Below, piece after piece: positions 2,923 to 58,233 of a DNA stretch of 64,000 bases; position 1 is the first letter of the stretch; each line of letters opens with the position of its first letter. The notes beneath the pieces were generated by a model. The model was not told the origin of the DNA. It saw nothing but the letters and a program-made list of their open reading frames with translations, and made no database searches. The stretch comes from a virus (Duplodnaviria > Caudoviricetes), in the IMG/VR virus record IMGVR_UViG_3300028591_000074, positions 96,001 to 160,000 of that record; one strand, written 5' to 3'. The position numbers and the translations under genes were made by a program.

Positions 2923-3723
2923 CTATTCAAATAAATTATAATTTGGATAAGTGCTATCCAATCTACTTTTTGCAATATTGCAGTATTCTTCACTTACATC
3001 AAATCCAATATAGTTTCTATGAAGAAGTTTTGCTTCTATAGCAGTTGTTCCAGATCCTAAAAATGGATCAAGCACTAAATCACCACTGTTACTCCATGTT
3101 ATTATATGATCATGTGCAAGTTTTGATGGAAACACAGCAGGATGCCCTGTACGATTATTTTTTTCAGATGGCACATCCCAAACATTAAACCTATTGCCAA
3201 ATTCTCCACATATAGTATTAGTCAAACTCTCAGAACGCCTAACTGTATCCCCATTAGTAGTACGATATGTACCATGTACCTTTGTACCATACCACTTATT
3301 ACGCCTATCAGATATTAGATTAACTGTTTTCGGTTTACCGTTACTAAAAACAAACATGTACTCAAAATTTTGATAATACCGTGTTGCATCTGGTAAGGAT
3401 CCAGAATCCTTAACCCATATCATAGTATCATGAAGATTAAGTCCAATATCTCTGAAATAGATGGCTTGTTTAAAACTTGTACATGTCTCACTTCCGTTTA
3501 CTGTACTATCATTAACTATCCAAACAATAACTCCACCTTGTTTCAGAACACGATATAGTTGTTCCGCAATGGTTTCGAAATCAAATGAATATCCATTATA
3601 TCGACGTAAGTTATCATATGGTGGAGAAGTTACAACAAGATCAATACAATCAGAGGGTAATTGTTTTAATAATTCCGCAGAATCTCCGCATCGTACATAG
3701 TTCATTTCTAACATAGACATCAC
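2923..3723 (-). CDS. N4/N6 DNA methyltransferase (beta class)
   Basis: TSPPY, HPAVFP and DPFLGSGTT motifs in an intact 266-aa ORF. Confidence 0.92.
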   Translation of the reverse strand: MMSMLEMNYVRCGDSAELLKQLPSDCIDLVVTSPPYDNLRRYNGYSFDFETIAEQLYRVLKQGGVIVWIVNDSTVNGSETCTSFKQAIYFRDIGLNLHDTMIWVKDSGSLPDATRYYQNFEYMFVFSNGKPKTVNLISDRRNKWYGTKVHGTYRTTNGDTVRRSESLTNTICGEFGNRFNVWDVPSEKNNRTGHPAVFPSKLAHDHIITWSNSGDLVLDPFLGSGTTAIEAKLLHRNYIGFDVSEEYCNIAKSRLDSTYPNYNLFE

Positions 3724-4122
3724 CTATTTAATCCTAACCCACTTTCTTCTTTTCTTCGTAGCCGAAAGAATATATTTATATACACCAGGAACAAGTGTTC
3801 CATGGTTAAAATGTATTTGTCCAATATTATCTACATACGAAAATGCAGTATTCTTGAACTGCGTCATAATTACACAAGATACTATATCTATTAAATCTGT
3901 AGATCTTCTATGATGTGTGTCTGGGAATACTTCCCGTTCTGGATAGAATAGAATTATATCATCAGCATTTGAATATTCCTGTATCCGTTTTTGTTGGTCA
4001 GGGACATCGTATTCTACACCTATGCAAACAACATATTCTATTCTTTTACAATTCTTCCGGCTTGATAATCTTTTTGATATAGCACGAAGTAATTGCATCG
4101 TTAATTTACTATCATTCACCAT
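3724..4122 (-). CDS. Hypothetical protein
   Basis: 132-aa ORF tightly packed in the operon. Confidence 0.55.
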   Translation of the reverse strand: MVNDSKLTMQLLRAISKRLSSRKNCKRIEYVVCIGVEYDVPDQQKRIQEYSNADDIILFYPEREVFPDTHHRRSTDLIDIVSCVIMTQFKNTAFSYVDNIGQIHFNHGTLVPGVYKYILSATKKRRKWVRIK

Positions 4123-4133
4123 AAGTCACCATC

Positions 4134-5747
4134 CTACGAATAGATGATTAGATTTTCTTTTGCCCTAGTAATTGCCACATAGTAGCAGTTTTTGTTATCT
4201 TCAGAATCGAGTTTGAACTTTCTGCCATTCACACCGATAACATATACCGTGTCATATTCAAGTCCTTTTACAGAATGAATTGTTCCAACATATACAGAAG
4301 ATTCCTGTTCCGGTCTATGTTCTACTGCAAGTATTATTTGATTTAATAAATCGGATACAGTAGATACTTCTGATAAATCTACAGCAAGATTCGGAAATCC
4401 AAGTACATTTAAAATTGCTTTGCATTTGTTGTCTTTATCCTTATCGCTATTCAAAATACCACGAATCTTATAGATAGATTCGGATCGTACTTTGATTTCA
4501 CGATTTGTATTAAATTGATTTAAGAATAATCGTTCTGTGTATTCCTTCCCCTCAGAAGTAAATATGGTTGACATTCGAATAAACTCTGAATACTGTTCCG
4601 ATGGTAAAAATGTTGCAAGCCAGTTTATCATATATTTACTATCGGATACACTTGGCAACATGAATCTTGCATCAACTTCTTTATGGCTTGTGGAATAAGC
4701 AACACCATTTTTATCCAATTCGTCACGGATGATAGAACACTCAGAATTAGTCCTAGAAATAATGGCAACAGATCCGGTTAGACATTTACATTCCAATGCA
4801 ATCCTCTTATAAATGTCCTTAAACTTAGGGGAATCAGTTAGATAAAAATACTGCCTATGTTCTACAGGTCGTCCAAGTCGTTCTGATTCAATAGGAATAC
4901 GATACGATTCATCTGCGTATCCTGCACTAAATTCATTTGCAAAGTTACAGATTTCTTTAGTTGATCGATAGTTTTCAGACAACCGGATGACTGTCCAATC
5001 CTTATCTACTGCAAGAGATTTTATAATTTCAGGCACTGCACCCCTAAATCGATAAAGACTTTGCAGAGAATCACCTACTACAAAGATATTAGCGGAATCC
5101 GAAAAGGACATAACAAAGTTATGTTGCACCTTATCTGTATCCTGATATTCATCCACATGCAGATATTTTATCATATTTCTATACTTATCTACAATCGGAT
5201 CTTTTGAAATAAATAATTTACATACACCCTGACAAAGTTCATCAAACGTAATGAGATTTTCCTTAACCATCAACCGTTTCCGAAACTTCATAAGAATCTC
5301 ATAATCTTTCTTTTCTTTCATAGATAAAGAAGCTGGATCAGATATTTTTGTTTTTGACAATCGAATACCGGACTGAGTAAGTGCTTCACTTTCAATCCGT
5401 TTCTGCTTATAATCATCTGCAATTGATGGCATAGATGTATAGCCAAGTGCATTACGGACTTTAATATCTTTGGACATTAAATCATAACAATAGCTATGAA
5501 ATGTACGAAACTCAGGTGATTCACCGCTATCGACATATTCCCTATATCGTTCTTTCATCTCAAATGCAGCGGCATTTGTAAATGTCAATGCAAGTATAGA
5601 AGATGGTTCCACACCTCTGTTCACCAATCCGACAATGCGTTCGATAAGTGTTCTGGTTTTTCCAGTTCCTGCACCTGCTAAACACAGAATCTTCGGTGAT
5701 TCTGAATCAACTGCAATCTGTTGTGCTTTGTTAAGAGCATATCGCAT
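4134..5747 (-). CDS. UvrD/PcrA-like SF1 helicase
   Basis: Walker A AGAGTGKT, LTFTNAAA, TFHS, VDEYQD, VGDSLQSLYRFRGA, ENYRS, TIHSVKGLEYD, YVAITRAK. Confidence 0.95.
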   Translation of the reverse strand: MRYALNKAQQIAVDSESPKILCLAGAGTGKTRTLIERIVGLVNRGVEPSSILALTFTNAAAFEMKERYREYVDSGESPEFRTFHSYCYDLMSKDIKVRNALGYTSMPSIADDYKQKRIESEALTQSGIRLSKTKISDPASLSMKEKKDYEILMKFRKRLMVKENLITFDELCQGVCKLFISKDPIVDKYRNMIKYLHVDEYQDTDKVQHNFVMSFSDSANIFVVGDSLQSLYRFRGAVPEIIKSLAVDKDWTVIRLSENYRSTKEICNFANEFSAGYADESYRIPIESERLGRPVEHRQYFYLTDSPKFKDIYKRIALECKCLTGSVAIISRTNSECSIIRDELDKNGVAYSTSHKEVDARFMLPSVSDSKYMINWLATFLPSEQYSEFIRMSTIFTSEGKEYTERLFLNQFNTNREIKVRSESIYKIRGILNSDKDKDNKCKAILNVLGFPNLAVDLSEVSTVSDLLNQIILAVEHRPEQESSVYVGTIHSVKGLEYDTVYVIGVNGRKFKLDSEDNKNCYYVAITRAKENLIIYS

Positions 5748-32488: not shown

Positions 32489-32660
32489 CCGTTACCAAAA
32501 ACTTACAAAAGATTATAAATTTCTAAAAATCTTTATGTTTTGTTCCTGTTTCATTGAATCCGATTTTGCCAAAGCTACTTTCGTTTGATATAACTCTCCA
32601 CAGGCTTAACTTCCCGATTAACGCTCGGTAGGATATGATTATCAGCATTTAATTATACTA
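32489..32660 (-). ncRNA. Putative TnpB omegaRNA scaffold (IS right end)
   Basis: Non-coding stretch between the tnpB stop and the right end, which is the established omegaRNA location. Confidence 0.6.
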
Positions 32661-33915
32661 AATGAAGTTCACCATAAGATTTTAGGTTCTTCGCAGCATT
32701 TACATCCCTATCTTCTGAATATCCGCAATCACATCTGAATATTCTGTCAGATAATTTTAAATCTTTTTTAATCGTTCCACAGCAATTACATGTTTTTGAA
32801 GATGGATACCATCTATTTGCAACTATTAGCGGAATATTATACTTATCTGAGTTATACTCAAGAAGTCTTCTGAAGTCATAAAATCCTTGATTCTGAACAG
32901 ATTTAGACAAATGTTTATTTTTCATCATACCGGATATGTTCAAATCTTCTATACATATAAACCTTGGTTTTCGGTTTATAATATCACTAACAATATGACT
33001 TCGTTGATTTCTACGGATATTGCGTAATCGTTTATTAAGTTTCAATAAAGACTTTTCAGACTTTATAATATTATTAGTCTTTTGGTAACTTCCTCCTTTC
33101 CTATTACTTACATATTTTCTCGATATAGATTTCTGTAATCTACGTTTACGTTTCTCTAATCTACGGATTTTAGAAGATTTGTTTATATTAGCATACTTCG
33201 TAGAATCACTTAATATAGCAAAATCTTTAATTCCTACATCAAGTCCTATACCATCAGATTCTGGCACATATTTCGTAACATCCGTACTATCCTCAACAAC
33301 GACAGATACCCACCAATGCAATCCATCGAAAGTTATTCTAGGATTCATATAAGATGCCAATATCGGAATCCTACCAACTTCCGCAAGTCGAACATTACAC
33401 TTCACATTCCGTCTTGAACGATTTCCAGAATCACATAATTTTTCTATACGAACAGTTGAATCTGTAAATTGGATCTTAAAATTATCTTGGAAGAAACCAC
33501 AATCTGTATGATTCTTCCGGCTTTTATATTTCGGATGTCCTTGCTTATCATATTCAGTAAGTTGTTTACCAATTCGTTTCGCATGTTCAATCTGCTTTTT
33601 CGTATATGGTTTATAATTTTCAGATTTTCGTAGATTGAAGTATCTAATATATGATTTTACAAGATCCTTTATTGCTTGTTTTGTAACATTATTAGATATC
33701 GACTGCAGCCAAGAATATTCTTCTGAATTTCTCAGTTTTGTAAACTCCTTACGTAGTACACTGTCTGAAATAAACCAATTTCCTGAATTAAGACTTTCCA
33801 TTTCCTTGTGTAAAGCCCAATTATAAGCGAACCTTGATGCACCAGCAAATTGGAATAATCTGGATTTCTGCCAGTTATTCGGAAGCAACATCACTTTGAT
33901 CGCTTTGTACTTCAT
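32653..33915 (-). CDS. tnpB: TnpB RNA-guided nuclease, catalytic triad intact
   Basis: RuvC-I GLDVG, RuvC-II IEDL, zinc finger SSKTCNCCG...CDCG, RuvC-III DRDVNAAKNL. Confidence 0.95.
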   Translation of the reverse strand: MKYKAIKVMLLPNNWQKSRLFQFAGASRFAYNWALHKEMESLNSGNWFISDSVLRKEFTKLRNSEEYSWLQSISNNVTKQAIKDLVKSYIRYFNLRKSENYKPYTKKQIEHAKRIGKQLTEYDKQGHPKYKSRKNHTDCGFFQDNFKIQFTDSTVRIEKLCDSGNRSRRNVKCNVRLAEVGRIPILASYMNPRITFDGLHWWVSVVVEDSTDVTKYVPESDGIGLDVGIKDFAILSDSTKYANINKSSKIRRLEKRKRRLQKSISRKYVSNRKGGSYQKTNNIIKSEKSLLKLNKRLRNIRRNQRSHIVSDIINRKPRFICIEDLNISGMMKNKHLSKSVQNQGFYDFRRLLEYNSDKYNIPLIVANRWYPSSKTCNCCGTIKKDLKLSDRIFRCDCGYSEDRDVNAAKNLKSYGELHLV

Positions 33916-50164: not shown

Positions 50165-51653
50165 TCAATTATTAGATATAGATACTGATGTGTTGTGGAG
50201 TTCTGCTATATCTTCTGTGGTTAATACGGTTGCATACATTCGGAAGTCGGATAGTTGACCTGAGAAATATGCAGTAAATGCAGTTCCTGCGGAATTATTA
50301 CTTCTAGCCCCGACAACTAAGTTTGACCTTTGTTTTAAGGCAGCTGTGATAGTTGTAGTATCTACAAGTGCACCGTCTAAATAAGTTTTCATGGAAGAAC
50401 CATCATATGTACAGAAATAGTGATGCCAATTTGTATCATGCAGTAATGCAATTTGAGAATTGTAAGAACCATTAGCCGTGCTTTGTAATCTGTTTTGAGA
50501 ATGGTTTGTATAGAAACCTAATTGTGTATCTGCATCACCACCGGAAGTATTTAATAATAATACAGATTGCCAACCGGAACTAAGATCTGCACTTTTATAC
50601 CACATACCATAACTCCATTGATTTCCGATACTAAATTCTGATTTACTGATAGCAGAATTTGATCCATTAAATATTGTACTATGAGTATATCTTGGAGTAT
50701 CAGTACTTACAGTTAATGATGCACTATTTGTTCCATTGTATTTATATCCACTTACGTCATAACAAATGCTTGGAGTTCCAACTACTGATCCCGCAGTAAA
50801 AGCAGTATTAGCAGATACAGTAAATGTATTATTTACAACATCACACATGTCTACATTATAATATTTTACAGGCATGTTCAATTCCATACCATACAACTTA
50901 CTTAGATAATATTGTTGGTATGAGGTTGCAACTGCACCATTATGATATTTCGTATTAGATTGCTTTTCACGCAATTCTGGTGATTGCATTGTATACAAAA
51001 CACCATAATTCTTAAAAAGAGTTTCTTGCTTCTTTTTCTTAATGTTATCCAATTTGGATACATTATCTACACCATAACGTGCAAAAACGGTTTCAATGCA
51101 TTTTTGCTTTATTTCAGCATTTTGAAATGTGTATTCAACACCATATCGTTCCAAACAAGTATTTCTAGTTTTTTTCTTTAACTTGATCCGATTTTTGTGT
51201 GCTATCTACACCATATTTTGAAATCAAAATTTGTTTTATCTTTTCACGATGATTCGGATCTTGAAATACATAATCTACACCATAATGATTTTTAGTAGTT
51301 ATCCTTGATTTTTCTTGAATTGATTCCAAACACATTGGGGATGGTACACCGTAATTAGACATATTACATTCACGAAGTTTTACACCAGAACAATCCCTAC
51401 ATGCTAATTTCTTGATTACAGTATGATTCATCTCCAAAACATATGTTTTATATGACATTTCAAGTTATTTACCACAATAATCACACGCACAAATTATTAC
51501 AGCATGGCTACCTTTTGACAAATGTTCAATACTAACATCAATTATGTCACCAACTTTATAACCAATGTAACCCTTAGATTCCAAATATTTCCTATTCGAA
51601 TTTGCAATCCGAACTTTTGCAGTCTTTGATATCAACATATTCAATTTCTCCAT
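50165..51653 (-). pseudogene. Decayed YGV-repeat homing-endonuclease-like gene fused to a LamG/concanavalin-like fragment
   Basis: CDYCGK zinc motif and (K/R/N)YGV repeats; in-frame TAA at 51465-51467; A7 frameshift near 51169-51175; abrupt switch to WHHYFCTYDG...YLDGAL...FSGQLSDFRMY. Confidence 0.7.
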
Positions 51654-52793: not shown

Positions 52794-53999
52794 TTATTCA
52801 CCTGCAACAGTCGATGCAAATACATAACCAACTGCCTTTCTACCATTTCCTGGAAGTGTATATTCGATTCTTCTAAATTCTACATTTGTATATGGATCTA
52901 TGTATCCACCATCAAATACTTTAACTGCGCCAATAATATCAGTAAGTGGGAACTTAATATTTGGTATGGAATAAACACGTGTAACTTTTGTAAGTGCAAT
53001 AGATGTAGAATCTTCTAAAGTTTCACTCGTTAATGCATCTTGTGCTGAGCTAAGGAAGATTGTAGGCGATGTCTGTTCAGGTTTTTCCGGTTTAGTTTCT
53101 ACTACAGGTTCTACTTCTTCAATCGATTCTTCTGTAGATTCTTCTACTGATTCATCAGTGGAATCTTCTACTGGTTCAGAAGCAAGTTCTTCCTCTGCAT
53201 CTTCAGTATCAGAAGTGATATCACTATCGGTATCAATAGGTTCAGGTACAACATCTGTATCGGAATCTACAATATCAACATCGGAATCATCATCAGATTT
53301 CGATTCAATTTCCGTAACAGTATAAACGCCATTTTCATCTTGTTCTGAAATTTCGTAAGTGTCGGTATCTACAGAATCATCTGGAATAGTACCCTTGAAT
53401 GATCCACCAGTTACTGTAACTATAGTTGCGGTATCATCTTCTTTCGAAATTGCTTTGGAGAATGAGTAGATTCCACCACCTTGAACTTCTACGATACCCT
53501 TCTTCGCTACATTTACACCGTGATAATCACCATAAGCTGAAATAGAACCGTCTATAAGAACTAACTTACTATTTGCTTTTGCATTTGTGTAACCTTCTAC
53601 AGATACAACTGCACCTTCACCGGAATCTGGATTCGTCCCAATTACTGCACCATCGATTGTAAGTGTAGATTTCTTTGTTACAGATGCAATTGTTCCAGAA
53701 CCACCTGCCTGTAAACCTTCACCAAATGTAACATGTGTATCTGCACCATCTAAAATGATAGATGGAGAAGCGTTGCAGATAATGTCACCACCGATAAATG
53801 TAATATTACCGGATGTAATGGTAAGTGGAGATTCAATTGTTAAGTTGTAGGAATCAAGATTGATTGTAAGATTATTATTTGTTGAAATATCAATAGATTC
53901 TGAGACTGTGATATTATCGGAAAATACAATACTATCACCATCATTAGAAGAAGCAATAGATTCAAGCAGTTCTTGAAGTGTGCTTACAGTAAGTATCAT
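52794..53999 (-). CDS. Beta-helix-like protein with acidic linker
   Basis: Repeating T/I/G-rich strands, D/E-rich linker, small C-terminal domain. Confidence 0.5.
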   Translation of the reverse strand: MILTVSTLQELLESIASSNDGDSIVFSDNITVSESIDISTNNNLTINLDSYNLTIESPLTITSGNITFIGGDIICNASPSIILDGADTHVTFGEGLQAGGSGTIASVTKKSTLTIDGAVIGTNPDSGEGAVVSVEGYTNAKANSKLVLIDGSISAYGDYHGVNVAKKGIVEVQGGGIYSFSKAISKEDDTATIVTVTGGSFKGTIPDDSVDTDTYEISEQDENGVYTVTEIESKSDDDSDVDIVDSDTDVVPEPIDTDSDITSDTEDAEEELASEPVEDSTDESVEESTEESIEEVEPVVETKPEKPEQTSPTIFLSSAQDALTSETLEDSTSIALTKVTRVYSIPNIKFPLTDIIGAVKVFDGGYIDPYTNVEFRRIEYTLPGNGRKAVGYVFASTVAGE

Positions 54000-54028
54000 T
54001 TTGAAATCCTCCTCGATTGATTATAAAT

Positions 54029-54460
54029 TCAAATCATGTTTTCCAAACGAATCTGTCTCATTTCATCCCAAATTAAGTTAGACAGTATTCTAACTCTTGC
54101 TTTACGAGATTCGTCTAAAACATCCTTGTACTTATATATAAGGTGTTTTTCCTTTTTTGACACTAAAATGGTTTCTCTTGTGGATTCACGTACATCTATA
54201 TCATCTATATATAACAATCTATCGTTTGCGTAAATGAGGTCAAGATTCTTTCTTGTTTCTGCATATTCCAATTTCTGCTGAAGATGTTTCGGTTCTACAC
54301 CAGTAATGACCCAAGATATGGCTTCGGATTCTGAAATACAATTATTGACACGTTTCATTCTTCTACGTGCCACACCGCATATATACAGAATGGCAGCATA
54401 ATTGCTGCCAAGTGCCTGTACATATATATTAAATTTTGAATCATATATCCAATGTTTCAT
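54029..54460 (-). CDS. Hypothetical protein; N-terminus weakly resembles RNA polymerase omega subunit
   Basis: LGSNYAAILYICGVARRR...EAISWVITG versus the omega pattern IGNRFDLVLVAARRARQ...IALREIEEG (by-eye alignment). Confidence 0.35.
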   Translation of the reverse strand: MKHWIYDSKFNIYVQALGSNYAAILYICGVARRRMKRVNNCISESEAISWVITGVEPKHLQQKLEYAETRKNLDLIYANDRLLYIDDIDVRESTRETILVSKKEKHLIYKYKDVLDESRKARVRILSNLIWDEMRQIRLENMI

Positions 54461-54530
54461 AAATGAACATTATTCAACTTTCTTGCGTATAAGATTATTT
54501 CATATTTGTGGTTATACTTCCCACGGCCTT

Positions 54531-54886
54531 GTTTGACACCTATGTAAGTTAGCATTTCATCAAAACTTCTACCATGTATCAAGCATTTTGACACCTATGT
54601 AAATTAACATGACACCAAAACGATATCGTGATTTCACCGCGTATCTGGCTTGTTTGATACCTATGTAATTTAACATGACATCAAAACAGTAGCAGTTACA
54701 TTCATGATACTTCCTCCAGTTTGATACCTATGTAATTTAACACTGTATCGAAACTAATAGCACGCTTTTGTTTCGATTCGCTTTGTTTGACACCTGTGTA
54801 ATTTAACATTGTATCGAAACTAATATCGGATTTGGAAGTCAGTTGGCAAGGTTTGATACCTATGTAATTTAACATGACATCAAACC
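54531..54886 (-). CRISPR. Array A: 6 degenerate 36-bp repeats, 5 spacers (19,30,31,30,30 nt)
   Basis: Repeats start at 54531, 54586, 54652, 54719, 54785, 54851; plus-strand consensus GTTTGAYACCTATGTAATTTAACATGACATCAAAAC. Confidence 0.92.
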
Positions 54887-55000
54887 CCAAATCACACACG
54901 TATTCAGTTTTGATAGCATATTTACAAAGGTTTAGTGAGTGCTTTGTGGAAATCATTATAGATTTCCTACCTCACTATAAGGTTGTCAAATCAACCCTTA
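54887..55000 (-). ncRNA. tracr/omegaRNA-like scaffold A
   Basis: Anti-repeat at 54907-54930; stems tagtgag/ctcacta, ggaaatc/gatttcc, ggttg/caacc. Confidence 0.75.
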
Positions 55001-55043
55001 TATATAAATATTTCAATTACATGTAACAACCGATCCTTCTGAT

Positions 55044-55585
55044 GTTTGACACCTATTGAATCCCATAGCTCAACAAAACTGTATTAACTGTCATGTTTTC
55101 TTCGCTTAGATTTGACACCTGTGTAATTCCGCAGTTCCTCAAAACTATAATGTATTACCCTTGAGTTTGACTATGTTTGATACCTATATAATTTTGCAGT
55201 CTGTCAAAACCGGTATCTCACCTAAGCCGTTTTCCACAGGTTTGATGCCTATGTAATCTCACAATCTAACAAAACCAAGATGTTCTTGTCGATGCCATCA
55301 AGGAAGTTTGACACCAATGTAATTTCGTAGTCCAACAAAACAGAAACTGATATATGAGAATCCCATGTATTAGTTTGACACCTGTGTAATTCCATAATCC
55401 ATCAAAACTTAGCGAATGTCTGTTCACTTTTGACACCTATGTAATCTCACAATCCAACAAAACAATGAATTGTGTTCTTTCATCTTGATTGTTGTTTGAC
55501 ACCAATGTAATTTCATAGTCTATCAAAATCTTCAGACAAATACCTAATAAGTTTGACACCTATACAATTTACAGTCCGACAAAAC
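55044..55585 (-). CRISPR. Array B: 9 degenerate 35-36-bp repeats, 8 spacers (30,29,29,30,31,19,30,21 nt)
   Basis: Repeats start at 55044, 55110, 55175, 55240, 55306, 55373, 55428, 55494, 55551; consensus GTTTGACACCTATGTAATTYCAYAGTCYAWCAAAAC. Confidence 0.92.
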
Positions 55586-55700
55586 ATCAAATCACACATA
55601 TTCAGTTTTGACAGATCATATTTTACAAAGGCTTAGTGAGTGTGTTACGTGAATCATTTCAGATCACTACCTCACCATAAGGTCGTCAAATCGACCCCGT
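55586..55700 (-). ncRNA. tracr/omegaRNA-like scaffold B
   Basis: Paralog of scaffold A; anti-repeat at 55605-55631; compensatory ggtcg/cgacc stem. Confidence 0.75.
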
Positions 55701-55736
55701 ATATTAAATTTTACGTTACGATTATATTTAGCATAA

Positions 55737-55869
55737 GTTTGATGTATTTGTAATTCCATACACCACCCGGGCCTGTAGTTTGATGTCCTTATAATTCCAT
55801 ACAGTTCAAATCAAAAGTATAATCATCCAACCTTTTATGTTTGACATCTATGCAATCACATATAGGATC
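55737..55869 (-). CRISPR. Array C: 3 strongly degenerate repeats
   Basis: GTTTGA-starting units at 55737, 55778 and 55839; the first two share taattccatac, the third is more diverged. Confidence 0.6.
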
Positions 55870-55961
55870 GTTGATCCGTATGAAATTACAAAGGCTTGGT
55901 GAGTGTGTTACGGATAATTCTGAGACTATCCTACCTCACTTTACGGCTGTCAAATCAACCC
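55870..55961 (-). ncRNA. Scaffold C overlapping the Cas12f-like stop codon and fused to its first repeat
   Basis: Third paralog of the scaffold; ggatc-gtt-gatcc hairpin joins anti-repeat to repeat. Confidence 0.7.
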
Positions 55962-57295
55962 ATTATTGTAATATTCTTTGCCTTGTTATAGGCATGACTG
56001 ATTGTTTTTCCACAATGAGGGCAAGTAAACGATACTTCCTGTGTCCATTCAAATACCTTCGGAATTACTTCTTCTGTACAGAATACTTCACCGCAAGAAC
56101 TGCATACATTCCGGACTGTCCGAAGAACATCTGTCTTTTTATCCTGCTTATCAGTCATCTTACTTGTTGTTACAACAATACCTTCACGTTCTGCCTTATA
56201 AGTAATGAACTGTACCAACTGGTAATAGGACCAATTCCGAAGAAGTACGGGGTAATCATCAAGATCTGACTTCGTTACATCTTCTACCACAATAGCGGAT
56301 ACCTTGTTATCTTTTGCAAACTCAACAACCATCTTACTAAGATTATGATTGTATGTCTGCACATAATTTTTCTCATAGGACTTATGTGTTTCAAGTTTTG
56401 CTAACTTCTTCCCACGACCATGCCCACCATTGGAATACTTCAAAGCTCTCTGAAGATTCTCAAAGTGGATCTGAATATCTTTTCGTTTTGCTACAAGATC
56501 ATTCTTTATTGATCCGCCAATCTCATGTTCATCATCATCTGTAGAAAGTGCGGCAACAAGACATTTATCATATCCAAGTGCAAGCCCCATAATCTTTCCA
56601 TGCTCTGGGATATATTCTTCTGCATCACGCTCAATCTTGACAGACAGATTAAATATAATCTTACCCTTGTTCGTAATCTGAATCGTGCTACCGCAGACTT
56701 TATAATGTTCCGGATCAGTTACAATAGATTCCAAAAGTGACGGAAGGAACTTGTCCGGACCCTTATTCTTACCTGCACCAAGATACAGTTTGAAATGGAT
56801 TCCGTTTACAAACTTAAAGAAGTAGGCATTTACGGTATTTTCCGTTCCATCATCCGTAGTGTAGGTATCATCCCCGGTATAAATAGTAATGAACCTGCTT
56901 GGAACCATAAGTGGGAAATCTCTTTTATAAAATGGTAGATTCCGTTCACCCTTTGCAAGACCATTCTTCAAAGCTGTGGAAAAGTCCTGTTTTACTTTCA
57001 TACCACAGTTCCCGGCCATACCCAAACCCTTCGCCTGTTTCATATCATGTATGGCAGTATTTGTATTACGGAATATCATCTTCATTTCTTCCTTGAAGTT
57101 AGGATCATTGAAGTTCTTATCATACTTATAGTATAAGCACCCAACCTGTGACATGTAAGTATTCAAGATACAATACTGATTATAAATCCCGTCACGAAGG
57201 TACTGATATACTCTATCTCGTTCTTCTTTATCACCTACCGGGAATAACTGAATCTTCTTTGTTGTGATTGTAGTTGTTTTCTTCTGCATACCCAC
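55955..57295 (-). CDS. cas12f: Cas12f-like (type V-F / TnpB-derived) protein, predicted nuclease-dead
   Basis: KNGLAKGERNLPFYKRDFPLM, GGHGRGKKL, TYNHNLSK, RNWSYYQL..FITYKAEREGI, CSSCG...CPHCG. RuvC-I is GLALG (normally GVDLG), RuvC-II VEDV is retained, RuvC-III is SHAYNKAKNI (normally NADxNAAxNI). Confidence 0.88.
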   Translation of the reverse strand: MGMQKKTTTITTKKIQLFPVGDKEERDRVYQYLRDGIYNQYCILNTYMSQVGCLYYKYDKNFNDPNFKEEMKMIFRNTNTAIHDMKQAKGLGMAGNCGMKVKQDFSTALKNGLAKGERNLPFYKRDFPLMVPSRFITIYTGDDTYTTDDGTENTVNAYFFKFVNGIHFKLYLGAGKNKGPDKFLPSLLESIVTDPEHYKVCGSTIQITNKGKIIFNLSVKIERDAEEYIPEHGKIMGLALGYDKCLVAALSTDDDEHEIGGSIKNDLVAKRKDIQIHFENLQRALKYSNGGHGRGKKLAKLETHKSYEKNYVQTYNHNLSKMVVEFAKDNKVSAIVVEDVTKSDLDDYPVLLRNWSYYQLVQFITYKAEREGIVVTTSKMTDKQDKKTDVLRTVRNVCSSCGEVFCTEEVIPKVFEWTQEVSFTCPHCGKTISHAYNKAKNITIMG

Positions 57296-57340
57296 ATACT
57301 CCTGTACTTTTGATTTTCGTATGTTTCACGTTCCATGTAT

Positions 57341-57350
57341 TATAACGATT
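57341..57350 (-). promoter_or_regulatory. AATCGTTATA phage promoter-like motif upstream of the Cas12f-like gene
   Basis: Same motif seen at ~11 intergenic sites in the window. Confidence 0.65.
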
Positions 57351-57381
57351 CTAAAATAAAAAATTCTAATCAAAATCACCA

Positions 57382-58233
57382 CTAAAAATTAGTTATCAAC
57401 ACTTCATCCAATCCAATATTTTCTGAACCCTCTGAACGATACCGCCAATGATTACTATAATTACCTAACTGAATCACATTGTACTTACTGCTCCAGTTAA
57501 TTAGCAAATCATTTGACTTTTCACCATGTTTTAATACATTAGACAATGCAAACTTGACATTTTTCTGATTTAAAGTATCAAGTATATTTAATAAATCAAT
57601 ATCATCCTGTTCCAACCAACCACCAAATCCACGTTTACCATCACTGTAAGATCCTAAAGTGATACTATATGGTGGGTCACAATATACAAGTGAATCAGAA
57701 GTTAAATCTGTAAAATCAAATTCCCTGAAATCTAAACTTGTTAATACATACTTCTTTTCCTTCAGAAGTTTTGAAAAGTCCATAAGATTTTTCGCAGCGG
57801 TTGACGTAAAACATTTTTTTCCAAAGGAGGTATTAAATTCCATAGAATTATTGAACCGGAGTACATTGTTAAATGCGTAGAATGATAAGACTAATAGTAG
57901 CATAGGTTCTTTTGTCTTATTATATTCATCGCGTAATTCCATATATCCATCAGCATTTGCTTTACTTAATTTGAATCGATCAATCGTAGAATTGATATCT
58001 TCAAATATTGTAGATGTTGGTGTAGTCATAATATAATTATAGACTTCAATGAGATATGTGATTCTATCATTTGCATAAATGATGTCAGCATCTACATTTA
58101 CTGCAACATTCATACCACCTGTAAATAAATCAACGAACTTATCAATATGTTTTGGAAAAACCGGAATAATCTTTCCAAGTATTTCAAACTTACTACCCAT
58201 ATAGTTTAATGGGGATTTTACAAAATCTAGCAT
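57382..58233 (-). CDS. dam: Dam-like (D12 class) DNA adenine methyltransferase
   Basis: SPLNYMGSK, FVDLFTGG, RFNNSMEFNTSFG, VYCDPPY, FALSN, EVLITNF. Confidence 0.9.
   Translation of the reverse strand: MLDFVKSPLNYMGSKFEILGKIIPVFPKHIDKFVDLFTGGMNVAVNVDADIIYANDRITYLIEVYNYIMTTPTSTIFEDINSTIDRFKLSKANADGYMELRDEYNKTKEPMLLLVLSFYAFNNVLRFNNSMEFNTSFGKKCFTSTAAKNLMDFSKLLKEKKYVLTSLDFREFDFTDLTSDSLVYCDPPYSITLGSYSDGKRGFGGWLEQDDIDLLNILDTLNQKNVKFALSNVLKHGEKSNDLLINWSSKYNVIQLGNYSNHWRYRSEGSENIGLDEVLITNF

Follow-up and report, generated by a model that had tools for sequence, protein, structure and literature searches.

Related systems and the locus under study

The closest described relatives of the system analyzed here are RhCas12f1 and CnCas12f1, i.e., effectors of type V-F1 and its subgroup with C-rich protospacer adjacent motifs (PAM). 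Sequences of the RhCas12f1 trans-activating RNA (tracrRNA) and repeat are available (Kong et al. 2023, Suppl. Data 1; PMC10090079), structure 9NZP represents RhCas12f (PMC13186708), and the Al3Cas12f guide naturally lacks stem 4, deletion of which from the OsCas12f guide raised activity (PMC13186708). A pseudoknot is reported to be conserved among the guide RNAs of TnpB and Cas12 (PMC10097598). For the nuclease-dead Cas12f associated with sigmaE, a scenario of activity loss, reduction of the array to a half repeat, joining of the latter with the tracrRNA into a single guide, and duplication of the guide unit was put forward (Altae-Tran et al. 2023, PMC10691335). The present analysis concerns three paralogous RNA scaffolds (A, B and C; ~86 nt each) encoded on the minus strand downstream of a cas12f homolog in a 64,000-nt stretch of phage DNA (hereafter the window). 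The window comprises bases 96001-160000 of record IMGVR_UViG_3300028591_000074, a 253,527-bp IMG/VR virus genome (35% G+C, complete by CheckV) which was described as that of a 253-kb, rumen-type phage.

On the minus strand, the cas12f open reading frame (ORF) is followed by scaffolds C, B and A in this order (Table 1). Each scaffold precedes direct repeats of 36 nt spaced 55-67 nt apart (A is followed by 6 of them, B by 9, and C by 3 including one fused and one truncated copy), and the spacers are mostly 29-31 nt long. From sequence comparison, the scaffolds are very probably functional tracrRNA-type guide scaffolds of this effector. The whole is considered a probable case of paralogous tracrRNAs serving a phage-borne, type V-F1-like CRISPR system, in which a naturally nuclease-dead Cas12f uses guides for binding or silencing. 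Multiplexed RNA-guided DNA binding or silencing appears to be the most likely function.

Scaffold structure

The 5' hairpins of the minus strand read GGUUG-AUUUGA-CAACC in A, GGUCG-AUUUGA-CGACC in B and GGUUG-AUUUGA-CAGCC in C, which bears out the compensatory exchanges recognized in the initial annotation of this DNA. The same annotation had noted that scaffold C pairs on the minus strand only (its third pair is U:G there and C.A on the plus strand), that the loop AUUUGA is invariant in all three scaffolds, and that an outer stem GUGAG/CUCAC encloses inner stems which differ in sequence yet pair. All of this is found as described, with a fuller outer base of GUGAGG/CACUCAC. The inner helix measures 7 bp in scaffold A and 5-7 bp in C, and that of B comprises 6 bp plus a bulged A. 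Two details required amendment. The repeat 3' ends, initially given as UCAAAC or UCAAAU, read UCAAA plus one base in all 18 copies of repeats and half repeats (C in 15, A in 2, U in 1), the form UCAAAA thus being an addition. Moreover, of the scaffolds initially assigned to positions 54887-55961, the covariance model described below places A and B inside this interval, while C starts 2 nt beyond its end and overlaps the cas12f gene, the TGA stop codon of which is included in the 5' hairpin.

Downstream of the two stems, an anti-repeat (CCUUUGUAA...) is complementary to AUUACAUAGG, the conserved 3' half of the 36-nt repeats. The repeat:anti-repeat duplexes have energies between -10 and -25 kcal/mol, and scaffolds A and C mildly favour their cognate arrays. 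Since this preference is only mild, the three scaffolds are probably interchangeable in this phage, and a reading as three orthogonal modules was dropped because A and B in particular are likely to substitute for each other.

Single-sequence folding of the minus strand, compared to shuffled sequences, reproduces the proposed structure in A (z = -3.55) and in C (z = -2.29), that of B only weakly (z = -1.10). Inclusion of the first repeat with scaffold A yields z = -5.28, the anti-repeat pairing in cis with that repeat, and module C folds as a fusion in cis. Decisive for the structure is the covariation across homologs.

Covariation across homologous loci

Two close relatives (L001 and L002; IMG/VR, 97-98% protein identity) carry four scaffolds each, resulting in 11 paralogous copies together with those of the present phage. 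In these, stem 1 occurs as GGUUG/CAACC, GGUCG/CGACC, GGCUG/CAGCC and GGCCG/CGGCC as well as in the G:U intermediate GGUUG/CAGCC. RNAalifold predicts 20 pairs for the 11 copies, 12 of them with double-sided changes.

A covariance model (R1) was built from the 11 copies. With an E-value limit of 1, it was searched over 46 sources, namely the window plus 45 homolog loci, the latter consisting of 30 out of 62 IMG/VR loci, two earlier IMG/VR loci and 13 chosen by protein identity. The search yielded 90 matches, 89 of them on the strand of the effector gene; most begin 10-60 nt from the stop codon, often with two to four per locus. Within the entire 253-kb genome, exactly three matches were obtained, all in this locus. 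In the 90-match alignment, 94.7% of cells pair as compared to 36-43% with partners slid by 1-3 columns, although the former value is somewhat inflated by the alignment having been fitted to the model. All 20 modelled pairs show double changes (282 cells), and none of 500 shuffles reached the observed values. The covariance model proposed as a check along with the initial annotation therefore came out in favour of the pairing scheme, and selection on the scaffolds as functional RNAs, likewise claimed there, agrees with the excess of pairing over the slid controls. The proposed minus-strand orientation also holds: about 130 cells in 74 distinct rows (~11% of cells) are G:U, and orientation is fixed because these would be A.C on the opposite strand.

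Pseudoknot between stem-1 loop and repeat end

Complementarity of the stem-1 loop to the repeat end next to the guide had been interpreted initially as a TnpB-like pseudoknot. The loop taken from the model alignment was compared with the 3' repeat end of the array following the same scaffold. Of 31 distinct combinations of a loop with the repeat end belonging to it, 25 share at least 5 contiguous Watson-Crick pairs, as compared to 55 of 778 when loop classes are crossed. At least 8 complementary classes of loop and repeat end exist, including AUUUGA/UCAAA, AUUUGG/CCAAA, AUUUUG/CAAAA and AUUUUA/UAAAA, and furthermore ACCUUU/AAAGG, AUUUAC/GUAAAU, GCUUUG/CAAAG and AUUCAG/CUGAA. Hence loop and repeat end co-vary, as a pseudoknot predicts. 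The attribute TnpB-like proved too specific, since this is the standard Cas12 pseudoknot and the scaffolds are homologous to the RhCas12f1 tracrRNA.

Cas12f homologs with an apparently active nuclease, encoded in other phage contigs of 90-186 kb, are flanked by two or three tracr-array modules (L006 at 3060-5400; also L005, L011, L012-L016, L023, L024 and L030). The loops of these modules differ (AUUCAG, ACCUUU, AUUUUG, AUUUUA), each matching the repeat 3' end of its own array; in several of these relatives (e.g., L006), three modules around one gene display three different pairs of loop and repeat end. Because the loops differ yet match their own repeat ends, one protein appears to serve several orthogonal pairs of tracrRNA and CRISPR RNA (crRNA) in such phages.

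A Cas12f effector devoid of both catalytic aspartates

The effector contains a Cas12f1-like TNB domain (Pfam) and matches the NCBIfam model guided_TnpB at 94 bits, just below the cut-off of 100. Its closest solved structures are RhCas12f (9NZP, E 2.7e-49) and CnCas12f1 (8HR5, 1e-40), and the top structure matches of its AlphaFold model (predicted local distance difference test score of 84) are CnCas12f1, AsCas12f, Al3Cas12f and dCas12f.

According to HMMER alignments, the RuvC-I motif GxDxG, which is GVDLG in the Rh and Cn proteins, is changed to GLALG, and the RuvC-III motif NADYNAARNI of the Cn protein to SHAYNKAKNI. The D-E-D triad of RuvC is thus not intact, both catalytic Asp residues being lost and only the Glu retained. 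The protein is nevertheless of full length, with an intact zinc ribbon (CxxC...CxxC, all four Cys present). Replacement of Asp by Ala in RuvC-I and RuvC-III runs through all homologs from 98% down to ~40% identity, while homologs of 33-39% identity from other large phage contigs possess the D/E/D triad (GVDLG, NADFNAARNI). Acidic residues close to the lost positions (D of GYDK; D/E two residues before the RuvC-III site) are not conserved in the clade, being N in several members and S/H in the present protein.

The ratio of nonsynonymous to synonymous substitution rates (dN/dS) amounts to 0.026 relative to L001, at a proportion of synonymous differences (pS) of 0.40, to 0.026-0.04 over the range of pS 0.27-0.40, and to 0.04-0.08 relative to homologs of 76-81% identity. 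Judged from these ratios, the effector is under strong purifying selection. Given the clade-wide loss of Asp together with low dN/dS, it is interpreted as a functional, non-cutting (or at least non-canonical) Cas12f; that it acts by binding without cutting is accordingly the likely, sequence-based reading of its role. One of the two PAM-contacting Arg residues of the Rh protein (R117) aligns with Pro in the phage effector, so the PAM of the phage system probably differs from that of Rh.

Many proteins of the dead clade end with MG before the stop codon. The codons ATG GGT TGA (window 55955-55963) double as the 5' arm of the first scaffold's hairpin, so that protein C-terminus and RNA start are coupled. 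No description of this dead Cas12f clade was found in the literature searched; nearest to it are the array-associated dead Cas12f of bacteria, which are mentioned briefly and are C-terminally truncated (PMC13472631).

Modules, repeats and leaders

Modules A and B each consist of a tracrRNA, a short leader and an array, with a linker of 19-21 nt between anti-repeat and first repeat. In module C, by contrast to this split arrangement, a small hairpin (GGAUC-AAC-GAUCC) links the anti-repeat with a half repeat, the end of which is GAUGUCAAAC; a guide of 22 nt comes next. By its sequence, module C is a natural fusion in the manner of a single-guide RNA (sgRNA), followed by a decayed mini-array. L001 and L002 contain modules of like construction, S1 and S2.

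Degeneracy of the repeats affects their 5' and middle parts, the 3' 18 nt being conserved. A 15-nt, G+C-rich spacer-like segment at 55763-55777 (minus strand) reads TACAGGCCCGGGTGG in the present phage and CACGGGCCCTGGAGG in L001; situated after the fused module, it is kept in all three close phages (L001 5658-5677, L002 5628-5647) despite decay of the surrounding repeats.

The junction of the leader motif ATTTGAG with GTTT of the repeat anchors spacer integration in type II-A systems (PMC5382924), the arrays of which likewise have 36-nt repeats and 30-nt spacers. The leader ends of the present modules resemble this motif at 5 of 7 positions in A (ATTTGGG) and 6 of 7 in B (ATTTGAT), and exact ATTTGAG occurs directly before GTTTT repeats in the relatives L001, L002, L065, L067, L075, L012 and L038.

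Guides and a candidate target

Most searches for targets of the spacers were negative. Comparison with the phage's own masked genome gave chance-level matches of 13-18 nt only, and spacers of dead-clade loci found no match in the other retrieved loci outside the arrays themselves. With blastn of the arrays against records of cultured phages, only chance-level matches of 31-43 nt (E = 5) were obtained. An exact scan of IMG/VR for two conserved spacers found matches in arrays of relatives only, and three spacer patterns had no match in the GTDB representative genomes. BLAST of the arrays against 401 Lachnospiraceae genomes yielded short matches only, four of which, upon inspection, were located in coding or AT-rich DNA and appeared chance-like; recurrent matches in this search lay over the region of spacer B7 and over scaffold A.

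The present phage shares three consecutive spacers of array B with L001 and L002. These differ from those of L001 at 4 of 88 sites, as compared to 24.5% of the third codon positions in the adjacent gene (P = 5e-7). This low divergence may reflect either purifying selection or recent recombination. One of the three, spacer B6 (55239-55211), is recognizable also in a relative of 81% protein identity. In metagenomes of the Joint Genome Institute (JGI), it was detected in two arrays of relatives and in one short contig (L087), and a 25-nt B6 pattern matched one Lachnospiraceae metagenome-assembled genome (MAG). The match in L087 extends over 25 of 25 nt from the repeat-proximal end of B6. It falls in a HATPase_c_3 gene (sense strand; 97 nt from the gene start) and covers the codons for SVENGLGEI in the region of Bergerat motif I. 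The best PADLOC match of this gene is MzaB (4e-11), and homologs of 95% identity are common in assemblies of Clostridiales and Lachnospiraceae. Two further homologs match B6 at 24 of 25 nt (L089, with a Dnd-associated/SMC/HNH/methyltransferase cluster on one side and a phage-like replication module on the other) and at 23 of 25 nt (L090, a Lachnospiraceae MAG, beside housekeeping genes and a transposase); other spacers compared with the target loci gave nothing beyond B6. On the strength of these matches, there is a slightly better than even prospect of the GHKL-ATPase gene being the true target of B6. The match suggests a Lachnospiraceae-type host and possible silencing of an accessory, perhaps defensive, gene.

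The encoded product is a stand-alone HATPase_c_3 (GHKL/MORC-like) protein of 576-587 aa with a weak MzaB match (L087 2290-3207; L089 8001-9731; L090 2-1393, minus strand). The genomic contexts of this protein vary between transposases, a defence-island or prophage-like region and housekeeping genes.

Locus map and genomic neighbourhood

Table 1 Features of the cas12f locus (positions refer to the window)
Feature	Position	Strand	Remarks
Cas12f homolog	55955..57295	-	446 aa from GTG; probably 444 aa from ATG at 57289
Scaffold C, tracrRNA-like	55878..55963	-	cmsearch 88.3 bits
Remainder of module C: anti-repeat, small hairpin, half repeat	55839..55877	-	Repeat:anti-repeat helix predicted in cis
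Guide of fused module C, 22 nt	55817..55838	-	
Mini-array C, degenerate	55737..55813	-	Full repeat 55778-55813, 15-nt spacer, 26-nt truncated repeat 55737-55762
Scaffold B, tracrRNA-like	55614..55699	-	cmsearch 82.4 bits
Module B: extended anti-repeat end (through CAAAAC) and 19-nt leader	55587..55613	-	Leader end AUUUGAU precedes first repeat
Array B	55044..55586	-	9 degenerate 36-nt repeats, spacers 19-31 nt
Spacer B6	55211..55239	-	Kept in relatives; first 25 nt match a GHKL-ATPase gene exactly
Scaffold A, tracrRNA-like	54914..54999	-	cmsearch 92.6 bits; fold z = -3.55
Module A: extended anti-repeat end and leader	54887..54913	-	Leader end AUUUGGG
Array A	54531..54886	-	6 degenerate 36-nt repeats, spacers 19-31 nt
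Terminator-like hairpin, U-rich tail	54391..54410	-	3' of array A; 2 found vs 0.7 expected (weak evidence)

The hairpin 3' of array A possibly marks the end of the transcription unit. Candidate -10/-35 elements picked by eye upstream of each scaffold were dropped, as promoter matches were no commoner than in shuffled sequence. An Rfam search of 53500-57500 (E-value mode) revealed no relevant family, megablast of the 10-kb neighbourhood against cultured-phage records gave no match, and Cas1 was looked for in the phage and not found.

The gene directly upstream of the dead cas12f (57382-58233, minus strand) codes for a DNA methyltransferase (phrog_56, E 3e-45); the remaining neighbours are without annotation. 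The neighbours of homologs in other phages vary (UvrD helicase, RecJ, integrase, helix-turn-helix (HTH) proteins), so no conserved effector partner is apparent. A 329-aa ORF at 50165-51154 (minus strand), located amid unannotated small phage ORFs, has a homing-endonuclease-like N-terminus (phrog_12131, phrog_3339). Two other genes of the TnpB family with intact RuvC are present at 32656-33483 of the window and 221675-222592 of the genome (both minus strand; motifs GLDVG...DRDVNAAKN and ALDLG...NADVNGALN) and presumably represent ordinary insertions of the IS200/IS605 type.

Alternative explanations and proposed function

Several findings weigh against a dead Cas12f guided by functional scaffolds for silencing. 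Besides the inflated pairing frequency mentioned above, the RuvC-II Glu (VVEDV) is retained, leaving residual or altered catalysis possible on sequence alone. The degenerate repeats and imperfect leader ends (ATTTGGG, ATTTGAT) could mean ageing arrays, and a scan for sigma-70-like promoters found 9 sites versus 9.6 expected in shuffles. L001 and L002 are 100% identical over the shared spacer block, so its low divergence could stem from recent recombination. As to the candidate target, it was detected for one of ~17 spacers only and in one metagenome scan, a match of this kind is estimated to arise by chance with a probability of roughly 1e-3 to 1e-1 depending on collection size, and the 5' flank in L087, L089 and L090 is GATTACT rather than the CCN/CCD PAM of Cn/RhCas12f1.

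The retained Glu would also fit an ordinary immune type V-F locus for warfare between viruses or against plasmids, with targets still destroyed via a rearranged active site or a recruited nuclease and with the modules representing arrays that recombination brought in from other phages. The multi-module layout is shared by nuclease-active relatives in further large phages, module positions vary among relatives (e.g., S4 of L001 lies 2.4 kb further downstream), and spacer content differs between close relatives. However, both catalytic Asp residues are replaced by Ala or Ser across an entire clade under strong purifying selection, acidic residues nearby are not conserved, and a conserved partner gene beside the effector is lacking, which renders the immune locus unlikely. 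A decaying relic, the RNAs of which are disused and conserved merely through recent ancestry or roles at the DNA level (terminators, recombination sites), would account for degenerate and partly truncated repeats, spacers of only 15-21 nt in some cases and imperfect leader motifs; in addition, a plus-strand hairpin at 54981-54996 with T-rich sequence scores terminator-like, and scaffold B folds no better than shuffles (z = -1.1). Against such decay, compensatory and G:U changes maintain every helix across loci with saturated synonymous sites, the 3' 18 nt of the repeat and the loop remain complementary, dN/dS of the protein is ~0.03, and scaffold C is unable to pair on the plus strand; a relic is therefore regarded as very improbable.

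Overlap of scaffold C with the 3' end of the effector gene and its single-guide fusion are reminiscent of omegaRNA, and the guided_TnpB score of the effector falls only just short of the cut-off. One may thus suspect the scaffolds to be omegaRNA-type right-end elements left by repeated insertion of IS200/IS605 (TnpB) elements. Yet one effector gene faces three scaffolds, 6 repeat-spacer units follow A and 9 follow B, the solved structures closest to the effector belong to Cas12f proteins that have tracrRNAs, the Rh tracrRNA aligning with the scaffold, and none of the three genome matches of the scaffold model lies beside the two canonical TnpB genes of the phage (~21 kb and ~70 kb away). This origin has next to no credibility.

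For the favoured dead Cas12f system, the following course of events may be envisaged. In the guide RNA, stem 1 (5 bp, loop AUUUGA) is followed by stem 2 (conserved GUGAGG/CACUCAC base with a free inner helix) and by the anti-repeat paired with the 3' half of the repeat; UCAAA, the repeat end immediately 5' of the guide, is the partner of the stem-1 loop. Transcription and processing are presumed, with host RNase III probably performing the latter where repeat and anti-repeat form a duplex. The complex would then bind DNA without cutting it and thereby block transcription or replication of genes of the host or of rival elements. New spacers could be acquired through Cas1-Cas2 of a host type II-A system recognizing the ATTTGAG/GTTT leader-repeat junction.

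As a tentative and rather doubtful extension, one may speculate that natural CRISPR interference (CRISPRi) is operated in multiplexed form by a clade of large phages from rumen and gut, in which dead Cas12f is loaded from several tracrRNA-array modules as well as from hard-wired fused single guides. Under this extension, the guides would be under purifying selection and silence accessory or defence genes of the host during infection (e.g., the GHKL/MORC-like ATPase via B6), and new guides would be gained by mimicking the host type II-A junction, such that host Cas1-Cas2-Csn2 loads the arrays.

The scaffolds provide a natural mutational series for the Cas12f guide, indicating which helices are free to vary and that recognition of the pseudoknot depends on its shape and not on its sequence, which is useful for the design of orthogonal or minimal sgRNAs. 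The sizeable, apparently uncharacterized phage clade of dead Cas12f with arrays offers candidates for natural multiplexed viral gene silencing, with a testable first target. As compact natural DNA binders (~440 aa) with short cognate scaffolds, its members are of practical interest for CRISPRi and CRISPR activation (CRISPRa).

Comparison with known systems

The kind of RNA is known, i.e., a Cas12f tracrRNA with the Cas12/TnpB pseudoknot, and the surrounding system is an unusual variant. It is phage-borne, has a putatively dead yet conserved effector, three tracr-array modules, one single-guide fusion and type II-A-like leaders, and contains at least one conserved guide putatively directed at a bacterial gene.

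As in the Rh/CnCas12f1 systems, the tracrRNA is encoded just downstream of the gene on the same strand and starts with a hairpin GGUUG-AUUUxx-CAACC, the loop of which pairs with the last bases of the repeat; a stem-2 base YUGAGG...CACUCRS and an anti-repeat pairing with the 3' half of the repeat are likewise shared. The first 33 nt of the RhCas12f1 tracrRNA align with the scaffolds (ACGGTTGATTTAGCAACC..CTGAGGG against AGGGTTGATTTGACAACC..GTGAGGT), stem 1, the junction and the stem-2 base being common to both, and the scaffolds are on this account considered tracrRNA homologs. The loop is AUUUAG in RhCas12f1 and AUUUGA in the phage: in the former, AUUUA faces the repeat end UAAAU (the repeat ending in GUAAAU), in the latter UUUGA faces UCAAA. 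Compared to RhCas12f1, the phage effector lacks both RuvC Asp residues, and the phage scaffold has a short stem 2 and no stem 4. Furthermore, three scaffold copies with their own arrays, one of them fused into a natural sgRNA, are located in a 253-kb phage, and the repeats are degenerate and 36 nt long versus 30 nt in Rh.

The omegaRNA of ISDra2 TnpB (PMC10097598) likewise forms a pseudoknot, in which a 5' element pairs with the 3-5 nt that immediately precede the guide, and also begins at the 3' end of the effector gene, as does module C. Different from it, modules A and B of the phage have tracrRNA and repeats as separate parts, and transposon context, sequence similarity and an Rfam match are absent.

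TldR proteins (bioRxiv 10.1101/2023.11.30.569447) are likewise phage-borne, nuclease-dead members of the TnpB/Cas12 family with guides beside the gene and predicted repression of host genes. They descend directly from TnpB, use a single omegaRNA-like guide and target flagellin promoters, whereas the phage system has a Cas12f ancestor, tracrRNAs, arrays and ~17 guides, and the single target detected for it is located within a coding region at 97 nt from the start.

The dCas12f-sigmaE systems of Bacteroidetes (PMC13472631) are also based on nuclease-dead descendants of Cas12f. Inactivation in the phage is independent and occurred within the Rh/Cn branch (9N9C is matched at E 2.4e-16 only), and unlike in dCas12f-sigmaE systems, no rpoE or HTH partner is present among the neighbours of the phage effector. 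The phage protein is of full length with a zinc ribbon rather than C-terminally truncated, tracrRNAs and arrays are kept, and the system resides in a phage genome. The stages of the scenario for dCas12f-sigmaE coexist in the phage: in A and B, a full tracrRNA is accompanied by an array, and C represents the fused unit. Hence one locus displays the proposed stages leading from dual-RNA CRISPR guides back to single, omegaRNA-like guides after loss of the nuclease.

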